The translations under genes and the position numbers were made by a program. A stretch of DNA of 64,000 nt from Candidatus Marinacidobacterium sp. (GTDB lineage: Bacteria > Acidobacteriota > Vicinamibacteria > Marinacidobacterales > Marinacidobacteraceae): positions 2,144,001-2,208,000 of the forward strand of contig OZ242011.1 in NCBI GenBank assembly GCA_965204755.1, written 5' to 3'. Positions 4,315 to 25,330 of this stretch are shown piece by piece; position 1 is the first letter of the stretch; each line of letters starts with the position of its first letter. The notes below the pieces were generated by a model, which made no database searches, was not told the origin of the DNA, and saw only the letters and a program-made list of their open reading frames with translations.

Positions 4315-7232
<2,918 letters not shown>

Positions 7233-7248
7233 GACGAAGTCGGACGCT

Positions 7249-8229
7249 CTACGCCATCGCGGGCTGTGGGGCCCGTGACTCCCAGAGTTCCATTTCGCGC
7301 CGGACGATGGCCGTGAGCGGTTTCTCGCCCATCTCCAACACTCGGTTGCGGCGCAAGCCGGCGCAGAATTCCTCGGCCTCGGCGTAACTGATGGGGCCGA
7401 GGGCCGCGGCCAGCCGCTGGGGACTCACACCCAGGGACTCGCCGATGTCGTCGGCGAACTTCTCGAAGTAGCGGGCGATCTGCTCGGAACTCGGCGCCGG
7501 CAACTCCAGACGCAGTTGGAAGCGGCGCCAAACGGCGCGATCCAGAAGTTCCGAGTGGTTCGATGCAGCGACGACGATCGTGTAACTCGGCAGGTCGTCC
7601 ACCTGCATCAGCAGCGAGGTCACGACTCGCTTGATCTCGCCGGTCTCGTTCACATCACCCCGTTCCTTGCCGACGGCGTCGAATTCGTCGAAGAACAGGA
7701 CGCACGGCGTGGTCCGCGCGTAGTCGAAGACCCGCCGCAGTCTGGTGGCGGTCTCGCCGAGGAAACTGCCGATGATGGCGTCGTAGCGAACGACGAAGAA
7801 CTCGACTCCGAGCGCCTCGGCGATCGCCTCCGCCAGCGAAGTCTTGCCGTTGCCCGGAGGGCCGACGAGGAGGACCCGGTGGCGGGGCTCGAGGCCGTGG
7901 GCGCGCAGGAGATCGGCGCGATGCTGCTCTTCGACGAGGCGATGACAGGCCCGTTCGCACATCGGCGGCAGGAACAGGTCGTCGAACCGCTTCGTGGGCG
8001 TCGTCCGGAGCAAATACTCTCGCGCCTTGGGCGGGCGGCCGTTGACCGGAAAGCCGGTCCGGCCGGCGCTGCCGTTCGCGTGGAGCGCCCGGGAGAGGCG
8101 GTCGGCGAGGATGTTGTGCTGCTTGGCCCGCTCCTCGGCGATGAGGGCTTCGACGGTCTTGGCCAATTCGCGGCTGTTGCCTTCGACTCCCGCTCGCACC
8201 AGCGAAACGAGCAGATCGCTACGAGCCAC
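7249..8229 (-). CDS. AAA-family ATPase (IetA-like)
   Basis: GTG 8229 after GGGAGG; [32 protein letters not shown]; Walker [10 protein letters not shown]; Walker B LFFDEFD; GEIKRVV; [11 protein letters not shown]. Confidence 0.88.
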
Positions 8230-8803
8230 GGCGGCCTCCCCGGCGCTCGAGCGTCGCGGGCAGCGTCGCGCGAGGAACGGCGTCGGTCGCGGGTGGGCGC
8301 GTGGCCGGCGGTCCCGTGGCGTCGCCCGGCGCGGCTGCGGGAACCGTGACGGCGGTCGCGCCCTTTCTCGTCTGCTCGTCCGCGTCCGCCAAGTCGCGGA
8401 AGGCCTCACGGAGGAAACCGTCCGGCAGATCGGAAGCACTCGCGTACTTGGCGCGCAGGCCGCGCCGATGGATGAACCCGAGGCACAGGACGCTTCCGTC
8501 CGCCTCGCAGATGACGATGACAGAGTGCCTGGTCTTCGTGGTGGCATCGAGGGCGATCTCACCGTCGAACAGCGGATACGCCGAAAGGCGTTGGGGAAAC
8601 AGTCGGTAGAGCCGCGGAAGCAGAAACCGCGCGTTGCGCCGCGCCGACGGTGACGGCAGGGGCCACCCGTTCTCCTCGGCGTCCTCGTCGGCCTCCTCAA
8701 GTTCCCGGAGCGCGTCGCCGAGGTCGGGGTGGATTCCGCTCTCCGCCTCGACGAGCCGTTCCCCGGATCGCTCCGGAACCGAGCAGCGCGGGGATGAGGA
8801 CAC
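8219..8803 (-). CDS. hypothetical protein
   Basis: Protein-like core (DALRELEEADEDAEENGWPLPS...DGEIALD...VICEADGSVLC...LPDGFLREA) overlapping the ATPase start. Start codon uncertain. Confidence 0.6.
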   Translation of the reverse strand: MSSSPRCSVPERSGERLVEAESGIHPDLGDALRELEEADEDAEENGWPLPSPSARRNARFLLPRLYRLFPQRLSAYPLFDGEIALDATTKTRHSVIVICEADGSVLCLGFIHRRGLRAKYASASDLPDGFLREAFRDLADADEQTRKGATAVTVPAAAPGDATGPPATRPPATDAVPRATLPATLERRGGRRGS

Positions 8804-13367: not shown

Positions 13368-14783
13368 ATGAGTGTGCAGATCGTTCGGCGCGGATTCGAC
13401 CTCCGCCTCGCCGGCGCCCTGCCGAAGGATCCGCCGCCCCCCGAGACCCGCGTCCCGGCGCGGATCGCCGTGCTGGGCGCGGATTACCCCGGGATGCGCC
13501 CCGCGATGCGCGTCCAGGTCGGCGACTCCGTGAGCCGCGGCGCCGTCCTCTTCGAGGATCGCAAGACCCCGGGCGTCCGCTTCACCGCGCCGATGGCCGG
13601 CCGCGTCGCCGCCATCCACCGGGGAGAGCGCCGCGCCTTCCGGGCGCTCGTCATCGAGACCGCCTCCGAAGAGAGGTCGGGCCGCCCCGGCCGCGCCCGG
13701 TCGCTGCGCGGCGCGGCCGGCCGCCATCCGGAGGGGATGACCGCCGACGCCGTCCGCGAACTCCTGCTCGACTCCGGCGCCTGGACGGCCATCCGCGCGC
13801 GCCCCTTCGGCCGCGTCGCCGACCCGGAACGCCGGCCGGCGGCGCTCTTCGTAACCGCCGCCGACACCGCGCCGCTCGCGCCCGACCCGGCGCGGGCGGT
13901 CGCCGGACGGGACGACGATCTCGCCTGGGGCCTCGCCGCGCTGGCCCACCTCACCGACGGCCCGGTCTTCGTCTGCTCCCGCGCCGGGCGGCGGCTCCCC
14001 GTCCCCGACAAGGACCGCATCCGCCAGTTCGAGTTCGCCGGGCCCCATCCGGCCGGCACCGCCGGGCTCCACATCCACCGGCTGGCCCCCGCGCGCCGCG
14101 GCCGGGAGGCCTGGCACCTGGACGCGCAGGACCTCGCCGCCGTCGGCGCCCTGTTCCGGACCGGGTCGCTCGACCCGCTGCGGGTGGTGGCCCTCGCCGG
14201 GCCGCCGCTCGCCCGTCCGCTCCTGCTGCGGACGCCCCTCGGCGCCGACGCGCTCGACCTGGCCCGGGCGGAACTCCGGCGCGGCAACGAGACCGCCATC
14301 CGCCCGGCGCACGAAGACCCCGCCGACCGCTGCCGGGTGATCTCCGGCTCGATCCTCTCCGGGCGCATCGCCGCGGACGACGACGGCCGCTTCCTCGGCC
14401 GCTACCACCGCCAGATCACCGTGCTCGAAGAGGCGCGCCGCCGGCGGCTGCTGGGTTGGCTCGGGCCGGGCTTCGGCGCGCTCTCCGCGAGCCGCGCGTT
14501 CCTCCCGGGGTCGGGTCGGGGACACGCGCCGGACACCGACGCGCACGGCTCCCGGCGCGCCATCGTCCCGACCGGCGCCTACGAACGCGTCATGGCCTTC
14601 GACATCCCGCCGGTGTTCCTGCTTCGCGCGCTCCTCATGGAAGACCTCGAGCGCGCGGAGGAACTGGGGGCGCTCGAGTTGGTGGAGGAAGACCTGGGCC
14701 TCCTTTCGTTCGTCTGCCCGGCGAAGAACGACTACGCGCCGCAACTGCGCCGGGTGCTCGACGCCCTGGAGCGGGAAGGTTGA
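13368..14783 (+). CDS. nqrA: Na+-translocating NADH:quinone oxidoreductase subunit A
   Basis: IVRRGFDLRLAG, DYPGMRP, FAGPHPAG, ELGALELVEEDLGLLSFVCPAK. Confidence 0.95.
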   Translation: MSVQIVRRGFDLRLAGALPKDPPPPETRVPARIAVLGADYPGMRPAMRVQVGDSVSRGAVLFEDRKTPGVRFTAPMAGRVAAIHRGERRAFRALVIETASEERSGRPGRARSLRGAAGRHPEGMTADAVRELLLDSGAWTAIRARPFGRVADPERRPAALFVTAADTAPLAPDPARAVAGRDDDLAWGLAALAHLTDGPVFVCSRAGRRLPVPDKDRIRQFEFAGPHPAGTAGLHIHRLAPARRGREAWHLDAQDLAAVGALFRTGSLDPLRVVALAGPPLARPLLLRTPLGADALDLARAELRRGNETAIRPAHEDPADRCRVISGSILSGRIAADDDGRFLGRYHRQITVLEEARRRRLLGWLGPGFGALSASRAFLPGSGRGHAPDTDAHGSRRAIVPTGAYERVMAFDIPPVFLLRALLMEDLERAEELGALELVEEDLGLLSFVCPAKNDYAPQLRRVLDALEREG

Positions 14784-14844
14784 CCGCCGCGGCGCGCCGC
14801 GCCCCGACCCGGATGGCTCCCGCCCGCCGCCGCTGAGTCGAGGG

Positions 14845-16104
14845 ATGCTCCGCCCGCTTCTGGACCGGATCGGCCGGCCGTTCGCCGAGGGCGGGCCGCT
14901 CGCGCGGTTCTGGCCGGCCTGGGACGCCGTCGACTCGTTCCTCTACACGCCGGGACGCCGGACCGCCGGCCCGCCGCACGCCCGCGACCGGCTGGACATG
15001 AAACGGCTCATGTTCACCGTGGTAACCGCGCTGGCCGGCACGGTGGCGATGGCGTTCTACAACACCGGGCTGCAGGCGAACCGGGCCATCGCCGCCGGCG
15101 CGTCGCCGCTGCCCGGCTGGCGGACCGCGGTGATCGAATCCGTCGGCGTCGGGTTTTCGCCGGACAGCCTCCTCGCCTGCGTCGTCCACGGCGGTCTCTG
15201 GTACCTGCCGGTGCTGGCGGTCACCTTCGCCGTCGGCGGGACCTGGGAAATGGTCTTCGCCGTCGTCCGCCGCCACGAAGTGAGCGAGGGTTTCCTGGTA
15301 ACCGGGATGCTGTTCCCGCTGATCCTGCCGCCGACCGTGCCGCTCTGGCAGGTCGCGCTGGGGATTTCCTTCGGCGTGGTCGTGGGCAAGGAGATCTTCG
15401 GCGGCAGCGGTTTCAACATCCTGAACCCGGCGCTCACCGCGCGCGCCTTCCTGTTCTTCGCGTATCCGGCGGACCTGACCGGCGACCGCATCTGGATCGC
15501 CGCCGATACCTCGCCGGACGCGGTCAGCGGCGCCACTTGGCTCGCCCGCCTCAGCCTCCGGGGGCCGGAGGCGTTCGCGGAAACCTTCCATCCCGCCGGC
15601 GCCGCCGGCATCAGCCCCTGGGACGCTTTCCTCGGTTTCCTTCCCGGTTCGATGGGGGAAACCTCGGTGCTCGCCTGCCTGTTCGGCGCGTTGGTGCTCG
15701 CGGTAACCGGGATCGGGTCGCTTCGCATCATGGCGGCGGTGGCGCTCGGCACCCTGGTCATGGGCGGGGCGCTCAACCTGGTCGGCTCGGACACGAATCC
15801 CTTCTTCGCCGTCCCGTTCTGGTGGCACTACCTGCTCGGCGGCTGGGCGTTCGGGACCGTGTTCATGGCGACCGAACCGGTAACCGCGCCTTCGACGCCC
15901 GGCGGGCGGGCGGCGTACGGATTCCTGATCGGCGTGTTGGTGGTGCTGATCCGGGTGGTGAACCCGGCCTACCCGGAAGGGATGATGCTCGCCATCCTGC
16001 TGATGAATGTGTTCGCGCCGCTCATCGACCACTTCGCGCTCCGCCGGAATATCCGCCGCCGCGCCCGCCGGGGAGCGGACGAGCGGCTGCCCGCGGCCGC
16101 CTGA
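14845..16104 (+). CDS. nqrB: Na+-NQR subunit B
   Basis: DMKRLM, EGFLVTGMLFPLILPP, KEIFGGSG, FMN-attachment DAVSGAT, PEGMMLAILLMNVFAPLIDH. Confidence 0.95.
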   Translation: MLRPLLDRIGRPFAEGGPLARFWPAWDAVDSFLYTPGRRTAGPPHARDRLDMKRLMFTVVTALAGTVAMAFYNTGLQANRAIAAGASPLPGWRTAVIESVGVGFSPDSLLACVVHGGLWYLPVLAVTFAVGGTWEMVFAVVRRHEVSEGFLVTGMLFPLILPPTVPLWQVALGISFGVVVGKEIFGGSGFNILNPALTARAFLFFAYPADLTGDRIWIAADTSPDAVSGATWLARLSLRGPEAFAETFHPAGAAGISPWDAFLGFLPGSMGETSVLACLFGALVLAVTGIGSLRIMAAVALGTLVMGGALNLVGSDTNPFFAVPFWWHYLLGGWAFGTVFMATEPVTAPSTPGGRAAYGFLIGVLVVLIRVVNPAYPEGMMLAILLMNVFAPLIDHFALRRNIRRRARRGADERLPAAA

Positions 16105-16199
16105 CCGCGGCGGGTTCCCCGCCGGGCCGCGCGGTTTCGCCGGGCCGCCGTTGGCGCAAGGCGTCGGCGATGGCTACTATCCCCAACAATTTCGCGTAG

Positions 16200-17186
16200 A
16201 TGCATCCCGTCTTCGCGCCCCGCTCGATTCCGTTCGTTCGCCGGTCCCGCCGCCCCGGGGGATTTCCCGCCGTGCTCGCCTCGGCGCTGCTGGTCTTCGG
16301 AGCGGCGTTCGCCCAGGCCGAAGAGGTCAGCGGCACGCTCCGCGGACGGGTCGTGGACGACCAGGGCGGCGCGATTCCGGGCGCGGCCGTGTTCGTGTTT
16401 TCGTCGGCGATGCCGGAAGGCGTCCGCGAAGCGACCAGCAGCCAGGCCGGGCGTTACCGGTTCCGCAACCTGCCGCCCGGCGACTACACGCTGGAAGTCG
16501 TCATGGAGGGGTTCGACGACTACGCGCGCGAGGGTCTTCCGGTCGAGGCCGGGGAAACGACGGATTGGGATCCGGTGCTCGCCGTGCCGGCGCTCGCCGA
16601 GAATGTGAGCGTGGCGACGGAACTTCCCGAAGTGGACCTCCGGAAGTCCGGGGTTTCGACGAACCTGCGCTTCGTGGAGGTGCATCCCCGAACCTGGCCG
16701 ATCTTCGATACGGCGTTCGGGGCGTACCGCACGAACCGGCGGGACCTGCTCGTGGAACTCGGGATCCCGGACGCCGAGGTGCTGCCGGAGACGGCGCGGG
16801 TCCTCGGACTCGCGCTCGGGTTCATGCGCGCCCGCCACCCGGAACGGGAGACGAGCGCGGCGTTCTTCGGACGGGCGGCGGTCGGCGCGGTGCACAACAA
16901 CTGGTTCGGCGTGGTCTTCGACTTCGGCGTTCTGCGCTTGACGCGAAGCGGCTTCTTCGGCGTGGGCGCCGGCGTGTGGGGTTTGGGCGATCCCGATGTG
17001 ACCGATGTGGGTCTGTTCTACACGCAGGGTTTCGATACCGCCTGGCGGACGAAGGCCGGCCCGGTGCAGTTCTTCGTCGAGGCCCGCGTGTTCGCCCGGC
17101 AGTTGGACGCGCTGCAGGACAACTTCTCGGTGAACGGCGGCTTCCGAATCAACTGGCGCCCCCACCACCGAGTCGAAATCCGCTGA
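16200..17186 (+). CDS. exported protein with carboxypeptidase-regulatory-like domain and probable C-terminal beta-rich domain
   Basis: Signal peptide (..FGAAFAQA), then GTLRGRVVDDQGGAIPGA...GRYRFRNLPPGDYTL; amphipathic beta strands near the end (FSVNGGFRINW). Confidence 0.75.
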   Translation: MHPVFAPRSIPFVRRSRRPGGFPAVLASALLVFGAAFAQAEEVSGTLRGRVVDDQGGAIPGAAVFVFSSAMPEGVREATSSQAGRYRFRNLPPGDYTLEVVMEGFDDYAREGLPVEAGETTDWDPVLAVPALAENVSVATELPEVDLRKSGVSTNLRFVEVHPRTWPIFDTAFGAYRTNRRDLLVELGIPDAEVLPETARVLGLALGFMRARHPERETSAAFFGRAAVGAVHNNWFGVVFDFGVLRLTRSGFFGVGAGVWGLGDPDVTDVGLFYTQGFDTAWRTKAGPVQFFVEARVFARQLDALQDNFSVNGGFRINWRPHHRVEIR

Positions 17187-17231
17187 CCGTCCGCTGACCG
17201 CCGCGCGGCCGGGCGGCGGCCCCGCGCGCCG

Positions 17232-17747
17232 CTACGGAGCGGGGAAGAGTCCGAGCGCCGCCCGCTGCTCCGCGCCGAGCGGATAGTCCGGGTTACGGCA
17301 CGGGTAGATCTTCGCGGCGTCCCAAAATTCCACGGGGATATGGGTCGGTTCGGTGATCTTGACTCCGGCCTCTTCGAGATCGTGGTGGAGGCGGTACCCG
17401 TCGAAGAGGAAGACGAACTCGATCGCCCACGGGCCGGACGGTTGCTCGCCGGCCTTCGGCCCGTTGATCACCAGGTAGTAGTCGGGAGGCGTCGGCTTCA
17501 GGTCGAGGTAGCCCGGGTGTTTCGCGTAGCGCTTGACTTCGACGGTCTTGCCCCGGAGACACTTCGCTCCGTACCGCCCGTCCGCGAAGAATCCGTCGCT
17601 ACCGGGGTGCAGCGGGTCGTCGTGCAATGCGACAGGGAAGACGCCGGCCGCGATGAGTTCCCCGAAGTTCCCGGAGATCGCGGCGTAGTTGCCTGCCGCC
17701 ATGGCGCCGTCGGCAGCGGACTCCAGCGGGCGCAGGAGGCCGGCCAT
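17232..17747 (-). CDS. hypothetical protein, PD-(D/E)XK-nuclease-like motifs
   Basis: G.FGELIAA..F, GSDG, TVEVK, PDYYLV. A better RBS (GAGGA) + GTG at 17773 is one nt out of frame, so the 5' end may be frameshifted. Confidence 0.6.
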   Translation of the reverse strand: MAGLLRPLESAADGAMAAGNYAAISGNFGELIAAGVFPVALHDDPLHPGSDGFFADGRYGAKCLRGKTVEVKRYAKHPGYLDLKPTPPDYYLVINGPKAGEQPSGPWAIEFVFLFDGYRLHHDLEEAGVKITEPTHIPVEFWDAAKIYPCRNPDYPLGAEQRAALGLFPAP

Positions 17748-17892
17748 GCGTTTCAGGAGTTCGAGATCGTCACTTCGTGTTCCTCGGTTCAGGCGCAGTC
17801 GAACCTGGTGGGAGCCGCAAGGCGGCAGGTCGCTTCGTGGAGACCGCAGTCCCGCCGGACGACCGCCCGGATTCGCGCCGGCCGGCGACCGT

Positions 17893-19143
17893 GAAGGTCG
17901 TCGATCCGCGCCCCGACGACCGCGAAGGATCTCGATCTACGGGATCGAGCCGACGAAAGGGGGTGTCGATCGGCGCTATTCGGTAACCGCGAAGGGTGTC
18001 GATCCGGCGGCGCGGAAGGGTGTCGATCTGCGCCCCGGCGACCGCGAAGGGTGTCGATCCGCGCGGCGTGGAGCGAACTGGAAGGGTCTCGATCCGCGCC
18101 CCCGGAGACCGGGCAACTGTTCGATCCGCGCGGGTCTGGAGCGGGGGGCAAGTGTTCGATCCGCACTCCGCCCCGCCGCGTAAGTGTTCGATCCGCGCGT
18201 TCGGCAAGTGTTCGATCCGCAGGATCGAGCGGACCGGAAGGGTGTCGATCCGCGCGCCCGGCGCCCGCGAAGGGTGTCGATCCACGGCGCGGATCGGGCC
18301 GGAAAGGTGTCGATCCGCGCGTCCGGCGACTCCGAAGGGTCTCGATCCGCGGGATCGAGCAGACCGGATCTGTTCGATCCGATCCCCCGGAGATGGCGCA
18401 AGTGTTCGATCCGCGCGTCCGGCAAGTGTTCGATCCGCGGGATCGAGCGGACCGGAAGGGTGTCGATCCGCGCGCCCGGCGCCCGCGAAGGGTGTCGATC
18501 CATGGCGCGGATCGGGCCGGAAAGGTGTCGATCCGCGCGTCCGGCGACTCCGAAGGGTCTCGATCCACGGGATCGAGCAGACCGGATCTGTTCGATCCGC
18601 GTCCCAGGGGACCGCGCAAGTGTTCGATCCGCGCGTCCGGCAAGTGTTCGATCCGCAGGATCGAGCGGACCGGAAGGGTGTCGATCCGCGCGTCCGGCGA
18701 CTCCGAAGGGTGTCGATCCGCCGGATCGAGCAGACCGGATCTGTTCGATCCGCGCGCCCGGCGACCGGGCAAGTGTTCGATCCGCGCGGGCGTGGAGCGG
18801 GGTGCAAGTGTTCGATCCGCGCGTCCGGCAACTGTTCGATCCGCCGGTTTGCGCGGGCCGGAAGGGTGTCGATCTGCGCGTCCGGCGACTCCGAAGAGTC
18901 TCGATCCGCGGGATCGAGCGCCTCCGGAGGTGTTCGATCCGCGGTCTCGGCGCCTGCGCAAGTGTTCGATCCGTGGCATGGAGCAGGACGGATCTGTTCG
19001 ATCCGAGCCCCCGGCGACCGCGCAAGTGTTCGATCCGTGGCATGGAGCAGGGTGCAAGTGTTCGATTCGCACTCCGCCCGGCCGCGTAAGTGTTCGATCC
19101 GCGCGTCCGGACAAGTGTTCGATCCGCAGGATCGAGCGGACCG
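17893..19143. repeat. composite tandem array of ~40 units anchored on TCGATC(C), period mostly 32-33 bp (some 24-25, 31 and 34-35), with 218-bp higher-order repeat
   Basis: Cores counted at 17901, 17932, 17966, 17999, 18023 ... 19094, 19119. Three head variants: GAAGGGTG-, CAAGTGT- and GGATCTGT-TCGATCC. Equivalent cores at 18212, 18430 and 18648 are 218 bp apart. Confidence 0.95.
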
Positions 19144-19309
19144 GAAGACGCTCGCGGCGACCAACCCCCCGAAGTCGCCGTTGACCCCCGTGCCCTGCGG
19201 CGTCGCGATCAGTCGGCCGGCGGGTTCGTCCAGCGCCCGCACCACGCGGGTGATGCATTCAGGAGTTCGAGATCGATCACTTCGTTTTCCTGTTTCAGGC
19301 GTAGTCGAA
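19144..19309 (-). pseudogene. diverged 5' fragment duplicate of the 17232-17747 gene and its leader
   Basis: 19144-19309 aligns with 17637-17803 (shared TTCAGGAGTTCGAGATCG, TCACTTCGT, TTCAGGCG.AGTCGAA). The peptides ITRVVRALDEPAGRLIATPQGTGVNGDFGGLVAASVF and MAGLLRPLESAADGAMAAGNYAAISGNFGELIAAGVF align without gaps. Confidence 0.8.
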
Positions 19310-19356
19310 TCAAGGGTCGGGGCTCAAGCGGCGCTGTGGGGCCGCTGCGTGGTGTT

Positions 19357-19770
19357 TCAGGCGTGTACGCCGAGAGGGGCGACGGTGAGTCCGGGGAGGG
19401 CGGCTTGGAGGTGTCGCGCTACGAGGGTGCGGTGACACTCGGAGTCTCGGAGGCAGGCGCAGAGGAGGACGATGCGCTTGCCTTCGCGGATGGCGTCGAG
19501 GATGAGGGTCGTGTCGGCGTCCGGGTCGGCGAGGATGGGCGAGGAGTCTTCGTCGAGTGCGGCGTTTCCGAGGCCCGGGTGGTGCGAGTAGGTGATCCCG
19601 TGGGGTGCGAACCAGTTTCGGATGGCGGCTCCGCCCCAGATAAAGCGGGGGGATGTGGGTCGGAGTCGGATGTCGGCGATGTGGTTGACATCGGCGAGTT
19701 GGAGCCGTTCGAGGAGGGATTCTCGGGAGTGTCGGGCGTATCCGCCCTGATGGATGAGGGGTCGGGTCAT
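19357..19770 (-). CDS. DUF488-family protein
   Basis: GY..., IADIRLRPTS, ITYSHHPGLGN, IVLLCAC..SECHRTLVA. Confidence 0.8.
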   Translation of the reverse strand: MTRPLIHQGGYARHSRESLLERLQLADVNHIADIRLRPTSPRFIWGGAAIRNWFAPHGITYSHHPGLGNAALDEDSSPILADPDADTTLILDAIREGKRIVLLCACLRDSECHRTLVARHLQAALPGLTVAPLGVHA

Positions 19771-19841
19771 GCGAAGAGTCGGTCTCGGGAGTCTTCCCAG
19801 GCGTTGCCGACGGATTCGAAGGCGCGAAGCGACGGCATCGG

Positions 19842-20876
19842 TCAGCCGGCGAACTGGGTGGCGGCGTGGACGAGGCGGCCGTCGAGGGTAAGGGCGTGGT
19901 GGATCAGGCGCTCGTCCTTCGCGTGGAACTCCACCCCCAGCCCGAGACCCGGATTCCGGCGGAGCGGCATCCAGGTGGGGCGGCGGACGCCCCAGAGGGC
20001 GCGGGTCGCCGACGGTTGGCCGGGGCGCTCGGGGAGGTCGAGCAGGTGCGACCTCACGAGGCTTCCCCAGTGGGCCGCCAGCAGCCCCGGAGCGCCGAAG
20101 AGGTCCACGGAGACGACCCGTTCGCCGTGGGTGACCACGACGCCGCGCTGACCGGGGAGCGGGCCGCGGGCGGCCAGTTCCCCCGCCGCGCCGCCTCGGC
20201 CGCGGTCGCGCCGGAAGACCGCTTCCTCCGCCTCCGCGGCGGACCTCGACGCGGACGGGGCGCCGTGGGCCGCCATCAGGTCGTCCACCTCCCCCCAGGC
20301 GGCGCCCTGGTCGGAGGCGTAGCCGCGCTCTTCCCGGAGCGAGTCGGCGACGGCCCCGACCACCACCCGCCGCAGGCGCCGCGGGGCCTTCGCCGCCCCG
20401 ATCCGGAGCCGGCGGGACGACTCCGGGTCGTCCGGCGCCGTTTCGGGCGGCGCGGCGCCCGGCGTCCGACCGCCGTCCGGCGTCATGCCGACGATCGGGC
20501 TGCGCCTCGGGCCGGGGCGGCCGTAGGCCCAGCGGCCGGCCTCGAGGCAGGTCACCGGGATGTCGAGCGCCGCGCCCGGGGCCAGCAGCACCGAGCCGTT
20601 GACCACGCGGTTCTGCATCCCGCCGACGAAGTGCTCGCCTTCGACGAGCAGGATCGGCGTCGCCGTGGGGTTCGCCGCCCGCACCGTGTTCACCTGTTCC
20701 CGGTCGAGTTCCTTCACCACCAGCCCGGCGCCTTCGCCGGTGCGGATCTCCGGCAGGTCGTTGCCCTGCAGGTAGATCGGGTGGAAGGAGACATGCAGCC
20801 GGGTGATCGGCGCCCCGACGGCGGCGGTATCGAGCGCGGGGAGGGCCCCCCGCGGGTCGGTCGTTTTCTCGGTCAT
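19842..20876 (-). CDS. DUF6569 / ARPP-1 family protein
   Basis: VKE...VNTVRAAN...PILLVEGEHFVGGMQNRVVNGSVLL...IPVTCLEAGRW, DQGAAWGEV, PLPGQRGVV. RBS GGAG upstream of ATG 20876. Confidence 0.8.
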   Translation of the reverse strand: MTEKTTDPRGALPALDTAAVGAPITRLHVSFHPIYLQGNDLPEIRTGEGAGLVVKELDREQVNTVRAANPTATPILLVEGEHFVGGMQNRVVNGSVLLAPGAALDIPVTCLEAGRWAYGRPGPRRSPIVGMTPDGGRTPGAAPPETAPDDPESSRRLRIGAAKAPRRLRRVVVGAVADSLREERGYASDQGAAWGEVDDLMAAHGAPSASRSAAEAEEAVFRRDRGRGGAAGELAARGPLPGQRGVVVTHGERVVSVDLFGAPGLLAAHWGSLVRSHLLDLPERPGQPSATRALWGVRRPTWMPLRRNPGLGLGVEFHAKDERLIHHALTLDGRLVHAATQFAG

Positions 20877-20904
20877 GGTCTGGTTTCTCCCCGGCTCGTT
20901 GGCC

Positions 20905-20970
20905 GTCTATTGGTCAGATAGTTGTTATCTGAGAGACTAATACTAACGGGTTAAAGTCTCGAAGTCAAAT
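20905..20970. promoter_or_regulatory. AT-rich divergent promoter region with inverted repeats; candidate NrtR-type operator
   Basis: TCAGATA-gttgt-TATCTGA (20914-20932) and GAGACT...AGTCTC (20933-20960), lying between divergent DUF6569 and Nudix-wHTH genes. Confidence 0.6.
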
Positions 20971-20983
20971 TCCTCCCGCGTCC

Positions 20984-21943
20984 ATGCCGTCGAAGCGCCC
21001 CCCCGGGTACGACCCGCTCGCCTTCCCGCCGGTGGCGGTAACGGTGGACCTCGTGGTGTTCACCGTCCGCGGCGGAGCGCTGCAGGCGCTGCTCGTCCGG
21101 CGCGGCCAGCCGCCGTTTCGCGGCGACTGGGCGCTTCCGGGCGGGTTCGTCCAGCCGGAGGAGGACCTGCTCGACGCCGCCCTGCGGGAACTGGAGGAAG
21201 AGACCGGGGTGGGGCGGGAGGCCGTCCACATCGAGCAGTTGCGGGCCTACGGCGCTCCCGGCCGCGACCCCCGGATGCGGGTGGTGACCGTGGCCTATTG
21301 GGCGGTGGTCGGGTCGCTGCCGCCGCTGGCCGCCGGGACGGACGCCGAGTCGGCGGCCCTCGTCCCGGTGAAGGACATCGACGAGGGGGGCGTCCGGCTC
21401 GCCTTCGACCACTTCGGGATCGTCCGCGACGCCGTCGCCTACATCCGGAGTCGGCTGGAAGACGATCCGGCGCTCGCGGCGCGGTTCTGCCCGCCGGAAT
21501 TCACGATCACCGAACTCCGGCGCGTCTTCGAGGCGGTGTGGCGGACGGCGGTGGAGCCGGCGAACTTCCAGCGCCAGGTGCGGAAGAGCGGCGTGTTCCG
21601 GCGGCTGCCGGGGACGGCGGCGTCGGGGTCGCTGGGAGGACGGCCGGCTTCCCGGTGGGTCGCGCCGGAAGTGACCGCGTCGGCGGCGGCGCCGGAGGCG
21701 TTCGTGGGCGCGGCGCCCCCGGACGGCGCTCCGATGGCGGGCGCCGCGGAAGGCGTCGAGAGTCCGGGGGGCTTCGATCCGGTGTCGGTCGGTTCCGCCC
21801 CGGAAGCGCCCGCCGCCGGCCCGGCCGACCGCGGGGACGGCGCCCCGCCGCCCGCCTCCCCGGACTCGCCGCCCCGGGTGCGGTTCCCCCGGCCTCGCCG
21901 CCGCCGCCGCCCGGCGCCGCCGGACTCCGGGGGCGGCGGCTGA
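20984..21943 (+). CDS. NrtR-like Nudix hydrolase / winged-helix transcriptional regulator
   Basis: VTVDLVVFT, Nudix box WALPGGFVQPEEDLLDAALRELEEETG, RDPRMRVVTVAY, LAFDH, FTITELRRVFEAV..ANFQR, GGRPA; Pro/Ala-rich tail. Confidence 0.88.
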   Translation: MPSKRPPGYDPLAFPPVAVTVDLVVFTVRGGALQALLVRRGQPPFRGDWALPGGFVQPEEDLLDAALRELEEETGVGREAVHIEQLRAYGAPGRDPRMRVVTVAYWAVVGSLPPLAAGTDAESAALVPVKDIDEGGVRLAFDHFGIVRDAVAYIRSRLEDDPALAARFCPPEFTITELRRVFEAVWRTAVEPANFQRQVRKSGVFRRLPGTAASGSLGGRPASRWVAPEVTASAAAPEAFVGAAPPDGAPMAGAAEGVESPGGFDPVSVGSAPEAPAAGPADRGDGAPPPASPDSPPRVRFPRPRRRRRPAPPDSGGGG

Positions 21944-21989
21944 CCGCCCGGGCCTCCCGCCGTTAGGATTTTCGCCCCCCGCCGCCGCC

Positions 21990-22772
21990 GTGGACAGCGC
22001 CCGTTACATCCTCGGTTTCGCCGCCGCGGTGTGTCTCGTGTGCGCGGTGCTGGTCTCCGGCTCCGCGGTCTCGCTCCGCTCGCTCCAGGCGGAGAACGCC
22101 GAGCGCGAACGCCAGCGGAATGTCCTGTTCGCCGCCGGCCTCGCCGACCCGGAGGAATCCCTCACCGACGAAGAGATGGCGGCGCGGTTCGCCTCCGTTA
22201 CCCCCGTCGTCGTGGACCTCGAAACCGGCGCCGACCTGCCGGACGCGGACCCCGCGCAGGTGGACCCGCTGGTGGAAGCCGGCGTCCCGGACACTTCGCG
22301 CCCGGTGGCGGACAACCCGGCGCGGGTGCGGCGGGTGGAGCGGCGCTCGGTGGTGTACCGGGTCGAGGACGGGTCCGGCGGCCTCAGCGCCGTCGTGCTC
22401 CCGGTGCGGGGGCAGGGGCTCTGGGGCGTCCTCTACGGTTTCCTCGCGCTCGAAGCCGACCTCGACACCGTGCGCGGGCTCACCTTCTACCGGCACAAGG
22501 AGACTCCGGGGCTCGGCGGCGAAGTGGACAACCCCGCCTGGAAGGCGCTCTGGCCGGGCCGCCGCGTCTTCTCCGCCGGGGGCGAACCGGTCATCGAAGT
22601 CGCCCGCGCCGCCGCCGGGCCGGTCGCCTCGGACCCCCACCGGGTGGACGGGCTCTCCGGGGCGACGATGACCAGCCGCGGCGTGACGAACCTGCTGCGG
22701 TTCTGGCTCGCGGAGAACGGGTTCGGGCCTTACCTCGACCGGTTGCGCGCGGACGCGGGCGCCGGGGGCTGA
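21990..22772 (+). CDS. nqrC: Na+-NQR subunit C
   Basis: N-terminal TM helix, [29 protein letters not shown] site [14 protein letters not shown]. Confidence 0.95.
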
Positions 22773-22789
22773 CGAGGGGCGGAGGAGAC

Positions 22790-23416
22790 ATGGCCGACCG
22801 ACCGGCGCGGCGGGTGCTGATGGACCCGCTGATCCACAACAACCCGATCGCGCTCCAGGTCCTCGGCATCTGCTCGGCGCTCGCGGTGACCACCGGGATG
22901 CAGACCTCGGTGGTCATGAGCGCGGCGGTGGTCGCGGTAACCGCGCTCTCCAACCTCTCGGTGAGCCTGCTGCGGAACCGCATTCCCACCAGCATCCGCA
23001 TCATCGTCCAACTCACGATCATCGCCTCGCTGGTCATCGTCACCGACCAGATCCTGAAGGCGTACCTCTACGAGATCTCCAAACAACTCAGCGTCTTCGT
23101 CGGGCTCATCATCACGAACTGCATCATCATGGGCCGGGCGGAAGCGTTCGCCATGCAGAACCCGCCGCTCCGCAGTTTGCTCGACGGGATCGGGAACGGT
23201 CTCGGTTACGCCGCGCTCCTGCTGGTTACCGGCGCCGCCCGGGAAATCCTCGGCGCCGGCGAGTTCTGGGGCATTCCGGTATTGCCGCTCGCTTCGGAAG
23301 GCGGGTGGTTCACGCCGAACGGGCTCATGGGACTCTCGCCGGGGGCGTTCTTCGTGATCGGGTTCCTGATCTGGCTGCTGCGCGCGTTCCGGCCGGAACA
23401 GGTGGAAGCGGAATGA
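22790..23416 (+). CDS. nqrD: Na+-NQR subunit D
   Basis: GGAGGAG RBS + ATG 22790; [18 protein letters not shown]; [22 protein letters not shown]. Confidence 0.96.
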
Positions 23417-23454
23417 CCGCGCGGTCGGGTGGGCCGGCGCCCCGGACGAAGTAA

Positions 23455-24072
23455 GTGCTCCAGGACTACCTGAACATCGCCGTCCGGGCGATCTTCGTGG
23501 AGAACATGGCGCTCGCCTTCTTCCTGGGCATGTGTTCCTTCCTCGCCGTCTCGAAACGCGTTTCCACGGCGATCGGGCTGGGCGCGGCGGTGGTGTTCGT
23601 CCTGACGGTAACCGTGCCGCTGAACCAGGCGATCAACGACTACCTGCTGCGTCCGGGGGCGCTCGGCTGGCTGGGGGAAGCGCTGGGCGAGCAGGACCTC
23701 TCGTTCCTGCAGTTCCTCACCTTCATCGGGACGATCGCCGCGACGGTGCAGGTGGTGGAGATGGTGCTCGACCGCCACTTCCCGGCGCTCCACGCCGCCC
23801 TCGGCGTGTTCCTGCCGCTCATCGCGGTGAACTGCGCCATCCTCGGCGCGTCGCTCCTCATGGTGGAGCGCGGGTTGAACCTCGGCGAGTCCGCCGTCTT
23901 CGGGTTCGGCTCCGGTCTCGGCTGGGCGCTCGCCATCGCCGCCCTCGCCGGCATCCGCGAACGCCTGCGCTACCACTCCATACCCGCCGGGCTCCGCGGG
24001 CTGGGCATCACCTTCCTGCTGACCGGCCTGATGGCGATCGGTTTCATGGCGTTCGGCGGGATACAACTGTGA
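23455..24072 (+). CDS. nqrE: Na+-NQR subunit E
   Basis: [44 protein letters not shown]. Confidence 0.96.
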
Positions 24073-24100
24073 CCGCCCGCGGAAGGAGCGCCCGCCGGCC

Positions 24101-25330
24101 GTGAACACGGTTCTTCTCGGGGTCGCCGGGTTCTCCGGCGTCATCCTGGCGCTGGTGGCGGTGCTGCTCTACGCCCGGAGGCGGCTGGTGGCCACCGGGG
24201 AGGTCACGATCCGCGTCAACGACGACCCGCAGCACGACCTGGTGACTCCGGCGGGAGGGACATTGCTCGGCGCGCTCGCCGAGTGCGGGGTGTTCGTGCC
24301 GTCCGCGTGCGGCGGTAAAGGCAGTTGCGGCGTCTGCACCCTCCGGGTGAAGTCCGGCGGCGGCGCGGTGCTCCCGACGGAGCGGAGCCACCTCTCCCGC
24401 GGCGAAGAGCGCGAAGGCGTGCGCCTGTCCTGCCAGGTGAAGGTGAAACAGGATCTCTCCATCGAGGTGCCGCCGGAACTCTTCTCCGTCCGCAAGTGGA
24501 AGTGCCGCGTGCGCTCCAACCACAATGTGGCGACCTTCATCAAGGAACTCGCGCTCGAGTTGCCGGAAGGGGAAGAGGTGCCCTTCCGCGCCGGCGGTTA
24601 CATCCAGATCGATTGCCCGCCCCACGAAGTGCGGTACCGCGACTTCGACATCGAAGAGGAATACCGCGACGACTGGGATCGCTTCGGGATGTGGGACTTC
24701 ACTTCCGCCGTCGAACCCGGTGAAGAGGTGGTGCGGGCGTATTCGATGGCGAACTATCCGGAGGAGAAGGGCGTCATCCTGCTGAATGTGCGGATCGCCT
24801 CCCCGCCGCCGCGCCAACCGGAACTGCCGCCCGGCAAGATGACTTCCTGGCTTTTCCGCCTGAAACCCGGCGACGAAGTCACGATCTCCGGCCCGTTCGG
24901 CGAGTTCTTCGCCAAGGACACCCCGAACGAGATGATCTTCATCGGCGGCGGCGCGGGTATGGCGCCGATGCGCTCCCACATCTTCGACCAGTTCCGCCGG
25001 CTGAAGACGAATCGCAAGGTGTCCTTCTGGTACGGCGCGCGGAGCCTCCGCGAGGCGTTCTACCAGGAGGACTTCGACCGGATCGCCGCCGAATTCCCCA
25101 ACTTCGACTGGAAACTGGCGCTCTCGGAGCCGCTCCCGGAAGACGAATGGACCGGCCTCACCGGTTTCATCCACCAGGTGCTCTACGACAACTACCTGAA
25201 GGCCCACCCCGCCCCGGAGGACGCCGAGTACTACCTCTGCGGCCCGCCGATGATGCTGCAGGCCTGCCTGAAGATGCTCGACGACCTGGGCGTCGAACCG
25301 GAGAACATCGCCTTCGACGACTTCGGCTGA
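24101..25330 (+). CDS. nqrF: Na+-NQR subunit F
   Basis: 2Fe-2S motif [49 protein letters not shown]-terminal FDDFG. Confidence 0.97.

Follow-up and report, generated by a model that had tools for sequence, protein, structure and literature searches.

A dispersed, genus-restricted family of non-coding satellite arrays built on a TCGATCCG box in Acidobacteriota

The array at 17893–19143 of the window, by which we mean the whole 64,000-nucleotide stretch of DNA analysed here, is one member of a dispersed, genus-restricted family of non-coding satellites built on a TCGATCCG box. Satellite DNA is generally regarded as all but absent from bacterial chromosomes. In the present case, two small genomes, the source genome (G000) and a congener (G001), give ~0.2% and roughly 0.5% of their DNA, by summed array spans, to one satellite family. 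The family behaves like a eukaryotic satellite: its box is fixed and its spacer free, its units build higher-order blocks, and its loci differ between species. It also clusters at anti-phage defence genes. Our preferred reading, which we hold tentatively, is that these are fast-turnover, genus-restricted satellites whose box may be a protein docking site, and that the arrays may act at the borders of defence cassettes and supply homology for spread.

Anatomy of the array and its flanks

A scan of 17850–19200 at up to one mismatch found 41 TCGATCC-like sites. Of these, the site at 17945 forms the inverted arm of a hairpin, which leaves the 40 direct units at which the sequence-only reading of this DNA had put the array. 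Units are most commonly spaced at 32 bp; spacings of 33, 35, 31 and 24/25 bp also occur, and the six short units of 24/25 bp, likewise noticed in that reading, have their cores at 18023, 18212, 18430, 18648, 18836 and 19119. Each unit consists of a conserved head of 14–15 nt and a variable part of 9–21 nt. Tallied by eye, the heads are of the GAAGGGTG type (19 units), the CAAGTGT type (17) or the GGATCTGT type (4). The left edge of the array is degenerate and its centre is homogenised. The variable parts recur in a higher-order block, for which TRF gives a period of 218 bp, 3.2 copies and a score of 999; the blocks are 95% identical to each other. Alignment bore out three further early observations: the seven-unit block itself, its third copy lacking two units, and the recurrence of 18139–18240 close to the right edge (Table 1).

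Forward cores number 35 in the 1.25 kb of the array and 13 in the remainder of the 64-kb window, so the array is not a product of chance. Nor is it an assembly artefact, because the array and its flanks are present in contigs of four runs from four studies. The runs that contain the stretch include sponge-recorded and marine-recorded metagenomes, and the source genome is a single contig of 3.98 Mb with 71.7% GC. In contigs of three other runs, which have diverged by an estimated 1–3% in the array flanks, the joints inside the array differ (skips of 165, 323 or 855 bp; back-steps of 368 or 831 bp), with the proviso that short-read contigs in repeats can be chimeric. These differences fit a change in unit number between populations and could also be a graph artefact.

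The array is non-coding DNA. Its GC content is flat across codon positions (0.67–0.70), whereas the neighbouring genes have a GC3 of 0.86–0.94 and a GC2 of 0.46–0.56, and a Pfam search with the two longest open reading frames across the array gave no match. Together with unit periods that are not multiples of three, these results rule out a protein-coding repeat, which had been judged unlikely from the outset. All six frames summed contain only five stops.

Some units form hairpins of 8–10 bp, for example TCGATCC-GCR-GGATCGA. The hairpins that had been described in many units are thus present, but they are modest: the RNA fold z score for 18205–18430 is −2.50 on the plus strand and −2.36 on the minus strand. 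As the two strands score alike, we regard the hairpins as DNA palindromes and not as a strand-specific RNA signal. The sole match of the Rfam 15 covariance models in 15000–22000 was a chance lncRNA (E 0.41) outside the array, and a scan of the array for consensus promoters and terminators returned zero of each. The CAAGTGT heads contain GTTCGATCC, which we take to resemble a tRNA T-loop; descent from a T-loop was rejected, since the first T is a G or C in other arrays and Rfam returned nothing.

The array sits between two copies of one gene start (17752–17803 and 19258–19309), and its neighbours are gene A and genes for DUF488, ARPP-1 and NUDIX proteins. The gene A protein had no match in Pfam, NCBIfam or PADLOC, and its homologs form only five clusters among 5.8 billion proteins. 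An AlphaFold (AF2) model of middling confidence (pLDDT 67, pTM 0.71) gave NhoI (Z 8.8) and Eco15I-N (Z 8.7) as best fold matches, followed by Hjc, PvuII and DpnI (Z 6.5–6.7). NhoI and the N-domain of Eco15I are BisI-family enzymes (PMC11347163). Among candidates for the catalytic motif, D51 is invariant; E70-V-K72 is present, but by eye reads N-V-K in the paralog, and the fold scores come from the pLDDT-67 model. It is reasonable to regard the product as nuclease-like, with a restriction-endonuclease-like fold. This agrees with what the sequence-only reading had suspected of this neighbour, the best matches of the predicted model being PD-(D/E)xK restriction endonucleases. The homologs of gene A start nine codons earlier (MIDLELLKR); judging by eye, a loss of 1 nt within 17748–17775 has occurred in this genome, so that gene A starts at an internal ATG.

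On the other side of the array lies A', the remnant of a second gene of the gene A family. Its residues are identical to residues 10–46 of the homolog P0004 (180 aa) at 33 of 37 positions, against 13 of 37 for gene A. The break falls precisely at the edge of the array, so this second gene was cut after codon 46 by the array itself or by whatever event introduced it. In run X3, a single contig connects 19143 with 17624 via 11 letters, with 54 letters on the shorter side of the joint. As we read them, the 11 letters restore the open frame, which hints that an uninterrupted form of the gene exists in that population. The A' remnant retains the longer start, but by eye it seems frameshifted at codon 9.

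Table 1. Features of the array and its flanks (positions in the window)
Feature	Position	Strand	Basis
Gene A, 171 aa, lineage-restricted, PD-(D/E)xK-like predicted fold	17232..17747	-	AF2 model and fold matches
Gene A 5' region, repeated across the array	17752..17803	.	90.6% identity over 53 nt to 19258-19309
TCGATCC-anchored satellite array	17893..19143	+	40 direct units, 35 of 40 with exact core
Higher-order block, copy 1	18205..18422	+	7 units, 218 bp; 208/218 identical to copy 2
Higher-order block, copy 2	18423..18640	+	Alignment with copy 1
Higher-order block, copy 3	18641..18793	+	Without 65 bp (two units); TRF period 153
Terminal recurrence of 18139-18240	19045..19147	+	97/103 aligned columns identical
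A' remnant, codons 10-46 of second gene-A-family gene	19144..19254	-	37 residues; cut off exactly at array edge
Second gene-A 5' region, part of A' remnant	19258..19309	.	Alignment with 17752-17803
DUF488 gene	19357..19770	-	Pfam DUF488, E 1e-7; PADLOC candidate families PDC-M19A, PDC-M45B/C

A family of arrays, its box and its turnover

Clustering of cores identified seven core-bearing arrays in the 3.98-Mb source genome, counting the one at 17893–19143; the six further arrays lie at genome positions 245k, 340k, 756k, 1840k, 2588k and 2781k. The 340k array has ~116 units of 15–16 bp, while those at 2588k (2.0–2.2 kb) and 2781k (1.7 kb) are composed of units of 28–32 bp in higher-order blocks. 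A TRF census of the same genome listed nine tandem arrays that span 250 bp or more and have a shortest period of at most 40 bp; five of them contain the core. The congener G001 (one contig of 4.48 Mb) has 553 triple-core matches, and arrays were located at no fewer than 14 loci there. Among them are a 19-bp satellite, present at eight loci or more, and an array in which a 30-bp unit occurs 57 times.

Several other repeats were seen in these genomes. A segment of ~1.2 kb beside the 2781k array (L007 2100–3440; G000 2778.8–2780.2 kb) has ~20 copies in G001 at 67–71% identity, and its open reading frames had no Pfam match. An IS-like element of 1.92 kb occurs in G000 in four near-identical copies (1258520, 2340989, 3342607 and 3935261) and one partial copy (1588955). 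It contains a box, ~465 bp inside the element and not at its ends, and a link between element and arrays was discarded on that account. Giant in-frame tandem repeats at 850503–958630 (108 kb, period 387 bp), 513168–538331 (25 kb, 387 bp) and 3527219–3546639 (19 kb, 351 bp) presumably encode giant repeat proteins. A relation of array orientation to replication was also rejected: with the origin placed at dnaA (1.82 Mb), the box is on the leading strand in five of the seven G000 arrays, which is no signal, and the cumulative GC skew is weak and irregular.

The arrays share a box with the consensus A-N-G-G-G-S-TCGATCC-G, set among array-specific spacers that are unrelated to each other and range from 1 to ~20 nt. 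In an array-weighted profile of 14 arrays, three positions outside the anchored 7-mer are also conserved, G(+7) at 0.94, G(−2) at 0.88 and A(−6) at 0.77, and the information content of spacer positions is 0.06–0.6. As members of the family were identified through the core, the statement that all of them share it is partly circular; only the TRF census, the range of periods and the additional conserved positions beside the core are independent of that search. The core remains constant amid changing surroundings across 21 arrays in two species. A near-invariant core with drifting flanks, as first remarked within the single array, therefore holds even more strongly across the family. The proposed phasing of 32 bp, or about three helical turns, did not survive: array periods are 15/16, 19, 24 and 26–35 bp, so phasing is not a property of the family. 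The lack of a common helical phase argues against a single cooperative assembly on one face of the DNA.

Outside the arrays, G000 has 134 G[GC]TCGATCCG sites, which look like ordinary coding sequence. The idea that such solo boxes are operators was set aside for this reason, a control with the reversed motif being uninformative as it contains the depleted CTAG. Among tetramer palindromes in G000, CTAG (385), AGCT (332) and ACGT (265) are nearly absent, while GATC (24,976) and TCGA (30,361) abound, against ~10,000 each expected by composition. The near-absence of the former three looks like strong restriction avoidance.

Beyond the genus, triple-core matches are scarce. Each of 39 other genomes of the family and order has 0–3, which resemble coding repeats. 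In a sample of 400 genomes from the phylum, only G345, a member of another class, has many (290). They stem from short dispersed arrays of CGATCC-N heptamers with a GATGCCTTTCAGATCC spacer, on both strands (L284–L286), which are an independent family built on nearly the same word as the TCGATCCG box. Genomes G128 and G188 have 16 matches each, from an 8-bp microsatellite, and every other sampled genome has at most seven; the unpublished genome G192, within this tally, has one. Most of the genomes compared are fragmented assemblies from which repeats may be missing, so that absence here means not found in those searched. Triple-core patterns run against all genome contigs gave 1–3 matches per locus from many phyla, among the matches listed, and are uninformative on distribution.

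Even between the two species, the arrays turn over. No array was found at the same orthologous site in both (0 of 11 examined). Empty orthologous sites exist in G001 for three G000 arrays and in G000 for three G001 arrays. At the G001 site that corresponds to 17893–19143 (L267 8463–9164), the CarboxypepD_reg and ARPP-1 genes are separated by 700 bp that contain one core, and the entire block of gene A, A', array and DUF488 gene is absent. The sites of the 340k and 2781k arrays are empty in G001 as well. The 30-bp array of G001 (L267 13426–15112; 1.7 kb, non-coding) lies 3 kb from the site orthologous to 17893–19143, inside the respiratory nqr operon (nqrD–nqrE), and splits nqr genes whose orthologs are 193 bp apart in G000. 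For four of seven G001 arrays, the flanks map to distant places in G000; two of those four have a multi-copy HmaB flank, which makes their orthology uncertain. In both species, the nqr genes are themselves interrupted by CarboxypepD_reg, ARPP-1 and NUDIX/NrtR genes (window 13368–25330).

Neighbouring genes and possible roles

The flanking genes of the arrays in G000 and G001 include no single gene partner common to all, and no flank or leader shared by all arrays was found. Sister arrays stand beside genes for PCYCGC, hexapeptide transferase/DegT, ClpB and DrmD helicase proteins or inside the nqr operon; those away from defence genes are the nqrD–nqrE array in G001 and the arrays near PCYCGC, ClpB and DegT in G000. 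With such unrelated neighbours, the array is not a local system with the gene at 17232–17747, DUF488 or DUF6569, as had been envisaged, and the only paralog of that gene in G000 is not beside an array. The sequence-only reading had named similar arrays at unrelated loci, without a consistent partner, as the mark of a neutral minisatellite. That pattern is largely what we found. The array is nevertheless not fully reduced to a neutral one, because the box is constant across species and there is a real, if partial, link to Hma cassettes.

A bias of the arrays towards defence loci is nonetheless clear. Hma has been described as a candidate defence system of helicase, methylase and ATPase (PMC8565338). 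G001 has 13 close HmaB paralogs, and the DNA upstream of 12 of them was inspected. A conserved leader of ~130 nt containing TGGATAAT precedes eight of the 12 (L269, L272, L279, L281, L282, L283, L287 and L290) and, from its sequence and position, may be a cassette promoter or 5' UTR. Box units, in either orientation, occur at most 350 nt upstream of six of the eight leader-bearing HmaB genes in G001, compared with none of the four leaderless ones. Other arrays adjoin a DrmD-like helicase and PDC-M02B (G000 756k), a Type I REase subunit, a Fic protein (SoFic) and an HmaB fragment. The HmaB link in G001 could arise simply from joint copying of array, leader and gene. In G000, an array is near only one of three HmaB paralogs, and downstream of it. 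The HmaB gene nearest to 17893–19143 is 10 kb away. In each species, one HmaB gene has a gene A homolog immediately upstream; the 17893–19143 locus thus has components in common with the 5' edge of Hma cassettes. Elsewhere in the window, at 5781–8700, an IetA-like ATPase gene (E 1.7e-142) lies directly upstream of the N-terminal half of HmaB (E 1.4e-210). Together with a second Hma locus that immediately precedes the window, this locus makes up a defence island adjoining the nqr operon.

In the preferred reading, arrays would expand and shrink by slippage and by unequal recombination of single units and multi-unit blocks. They arise quickly at new loci and can destroy the gene in which they land, as with the truncated copy of the restriction-endonuclease-like gene. 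The box would stay constant as the working part, most likely as the docking site of a lineage-specific DNA-binding protein. At the borders of anti-phage defence cassettes, the arrays may act in cis, with a nucleoprotein platform forming just upstream of the cassette promoter, and as portable homology they may duplicate and reshuffle the cassettes. Any benefit to the host, like the protein binding, is inferred. We favour constraint on the box because orthologous genes of the two species are only ~70–91% identical in DNA, and a purely neutral repeat would not retain the same 8–14 nt in arrays that have neither spacer nor period in common. If the box is a docking site, it offers a handle on how uncultured sponge symbionts regulate and shuffle an unusually large number of Hma cassettes.

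Close behind ranks a selfish or neutral satellite without host function, which we consider possible, if somewhat less so. Its spread would be due to ectopic recombination and to being duplicated along with Hma cassettes, and its box would be kept by concerted evolution or by slippage-prone TCGA/GATC mini-palindromes. Much of what is described above suits it: loci that are unrelated and have no universal partner, a gene destroyed by the array at 17893–19143, a G001 array within the nqr operon, gains and losses between congeners, and degenerate edge units. The 19-bp satellite of G001 also recurs with the same leader and HmaB block, and unrelated TCGATCC-based repeats in G345, G128 and G188 hint that the word itself is prone to amplification. 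The constancy of the box is harder to accommodate, as concerted evolution homogenises whole units within an array and not one word across arrays of wholly different period and spacer, and the shares of ~0.2% in G000 and ~0.5% in G001 are much neutral DNA for genomes of 4–4.5 Mb. Were the selfish account right, the family would show cleanly, in a bacterium, how satellites turn over and disrupt genes. A more ambitious version of the docking-site idea, which we think rather unlikely, makes the arrays the cis half of an undescribed system: at the 5' edge of defence cassettes, Hma ones among them, a lineage-specific protein would occupy TCGATCCG boxes by the tens or hundreds, switching or insulating the cassette promoters and driving duplication of the cassettes and their exchange between loci. 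If true, this would amount to satellite-based diversification of a bacterial immune repertoire.

Two further accounts place the function elsewhere. Arrays transcribed as long 5' leaders of defence operons or by read-through might work as repeat RNAs, protein sponges or small-RNA precursors. Many arrays do have co-directional genes on either side or a gene start directly downstream, some units have the 8–10 bp hairpins, and the 52-nt repeats of Bacillus are reported to be transcribed (PMC8161180). Box orientation relative to flanking genes varies, with two sense and four antisense among the six HmaB-adjacent arrays, and this, together with fold z scores that are similar on both strands and the lack of an Rfam match or a promoter or terminator consensus, makes a role at the RNA level improbable. 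Least probable of all, in our estimate, is a cluster of epigenetic targets, an idea drawn from the overlapping TCGA and GATC in the box (GGATC on the other strand): the box would be a methylation site, and an array upstream of an Hma methylase gene would serve to sense the methylation state or to buffer it. The position of G001 arrays immediately upstream of promoter-like HmaB leaders is consistent with this, as are the strong over-representation of GATC and TCGA and the ~30-fold depletion of CTAG, AGCT and ACGT. But 13 diverged HmaB paralogs are unlikely to have one common target, arrays also occur far from any methylase, and outside arrays the box is neither avoided nor enriched beyond the over-representation of GATC and TCGA, the reversed-motif control being uninformative on this point.

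Comparison with known repeat systems

A literature search whose scope left out most subscription journals found no description of the TCGATCCG-box family. Searching for TCGATCC returned only primers and the like; a search for intergenic tandem repeats in Acidobacteria or sponges gave nothing relevant, and one for STRR gave passing mentions only.

Among eukaryotic repeats, alpha satellite with its CENP-B box combines diverging monomers, a fixed short box, homogenised multi-monomer blocks and fast turnover between close species. The TCGATCCG-box arrays share all four traits. Unlike alpha satellite, they are arrays of kilobase scale that belong to a bacterial chromosome of 4 Mb, and they imply no role as a centromere. 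Bacterial VNTR/MIRU minisatellites are intergenic repeats of tens of bp whose unit number varies between strains while the loci remain positionally stable. The repeats described here are similar in size and intergenic setting, but the loci themselves are gained and lost, and one box is common to all.

REP/BIME-REPIN elements with their RAYT partners are dispersed short extragenic repeats, palindromic and clustered in alternating orientation. The present arrays are likewise dispersed clusters of short extragenic repeats with some palindromic units. An assignment to this class was rejected: all 40 units at 17893–19143 are direct, most are not palindromic, an inverted half-core is present in only some, and a Y1 transposase is lacking (PF01797 gave no match in G000, which is 89% complete, and was found in six of 14 control genomes). 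CRISPR arrays, in which repeats of ~23–47 nt are separated by unique spacers of similar length, resemble ours in alternating a constant with a variable part. They too were rejected, as the constant part here is 8–15 nt, the 'spacers' are 1–21 nt and fall into few recurring classes, and no common leader and no cas context were seen. Plasmid iterons and par centromere repeats were discarded, since the flanking proteins scanned include no rep or par gene and the arrays are chromosomal and lie at many loci.

The closest precedent is the set of bacterial tandem-repeat families described by Subirana and Messeguer in 2021. They report many non-coding tandem-repeat families in Bacillus, each with a species-specific short word, and propose either protein polymerisation on DNA, with a role in the nucleoid, or small RNAs (PMC8161180). 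The resemblance to those families is close: many non-coding arrays per genome, several sequence families, a characteristic word and partial conservation between strains. Where those authors look for non-coding arrays of at least four repeats at many loci, we find seven in G000 and at least 14 in G001; where they look for a characteristic word in all repeats, we find the TCGATCCG box with its conserved G(−2) and A(−6). Their repeats have a constant length (52 or 20–21 nt) and a varying sequence, whereas here the word is constant and the length ranges over 15–35 nt; only the 19-bp satellite of G001 approaches their 20–21 nt. Compared with those families, which are from Firmicutes, those of these Acidobacteriota differ in their higher-order blocks, their bias to defence cassettes and their disruption of a gene.
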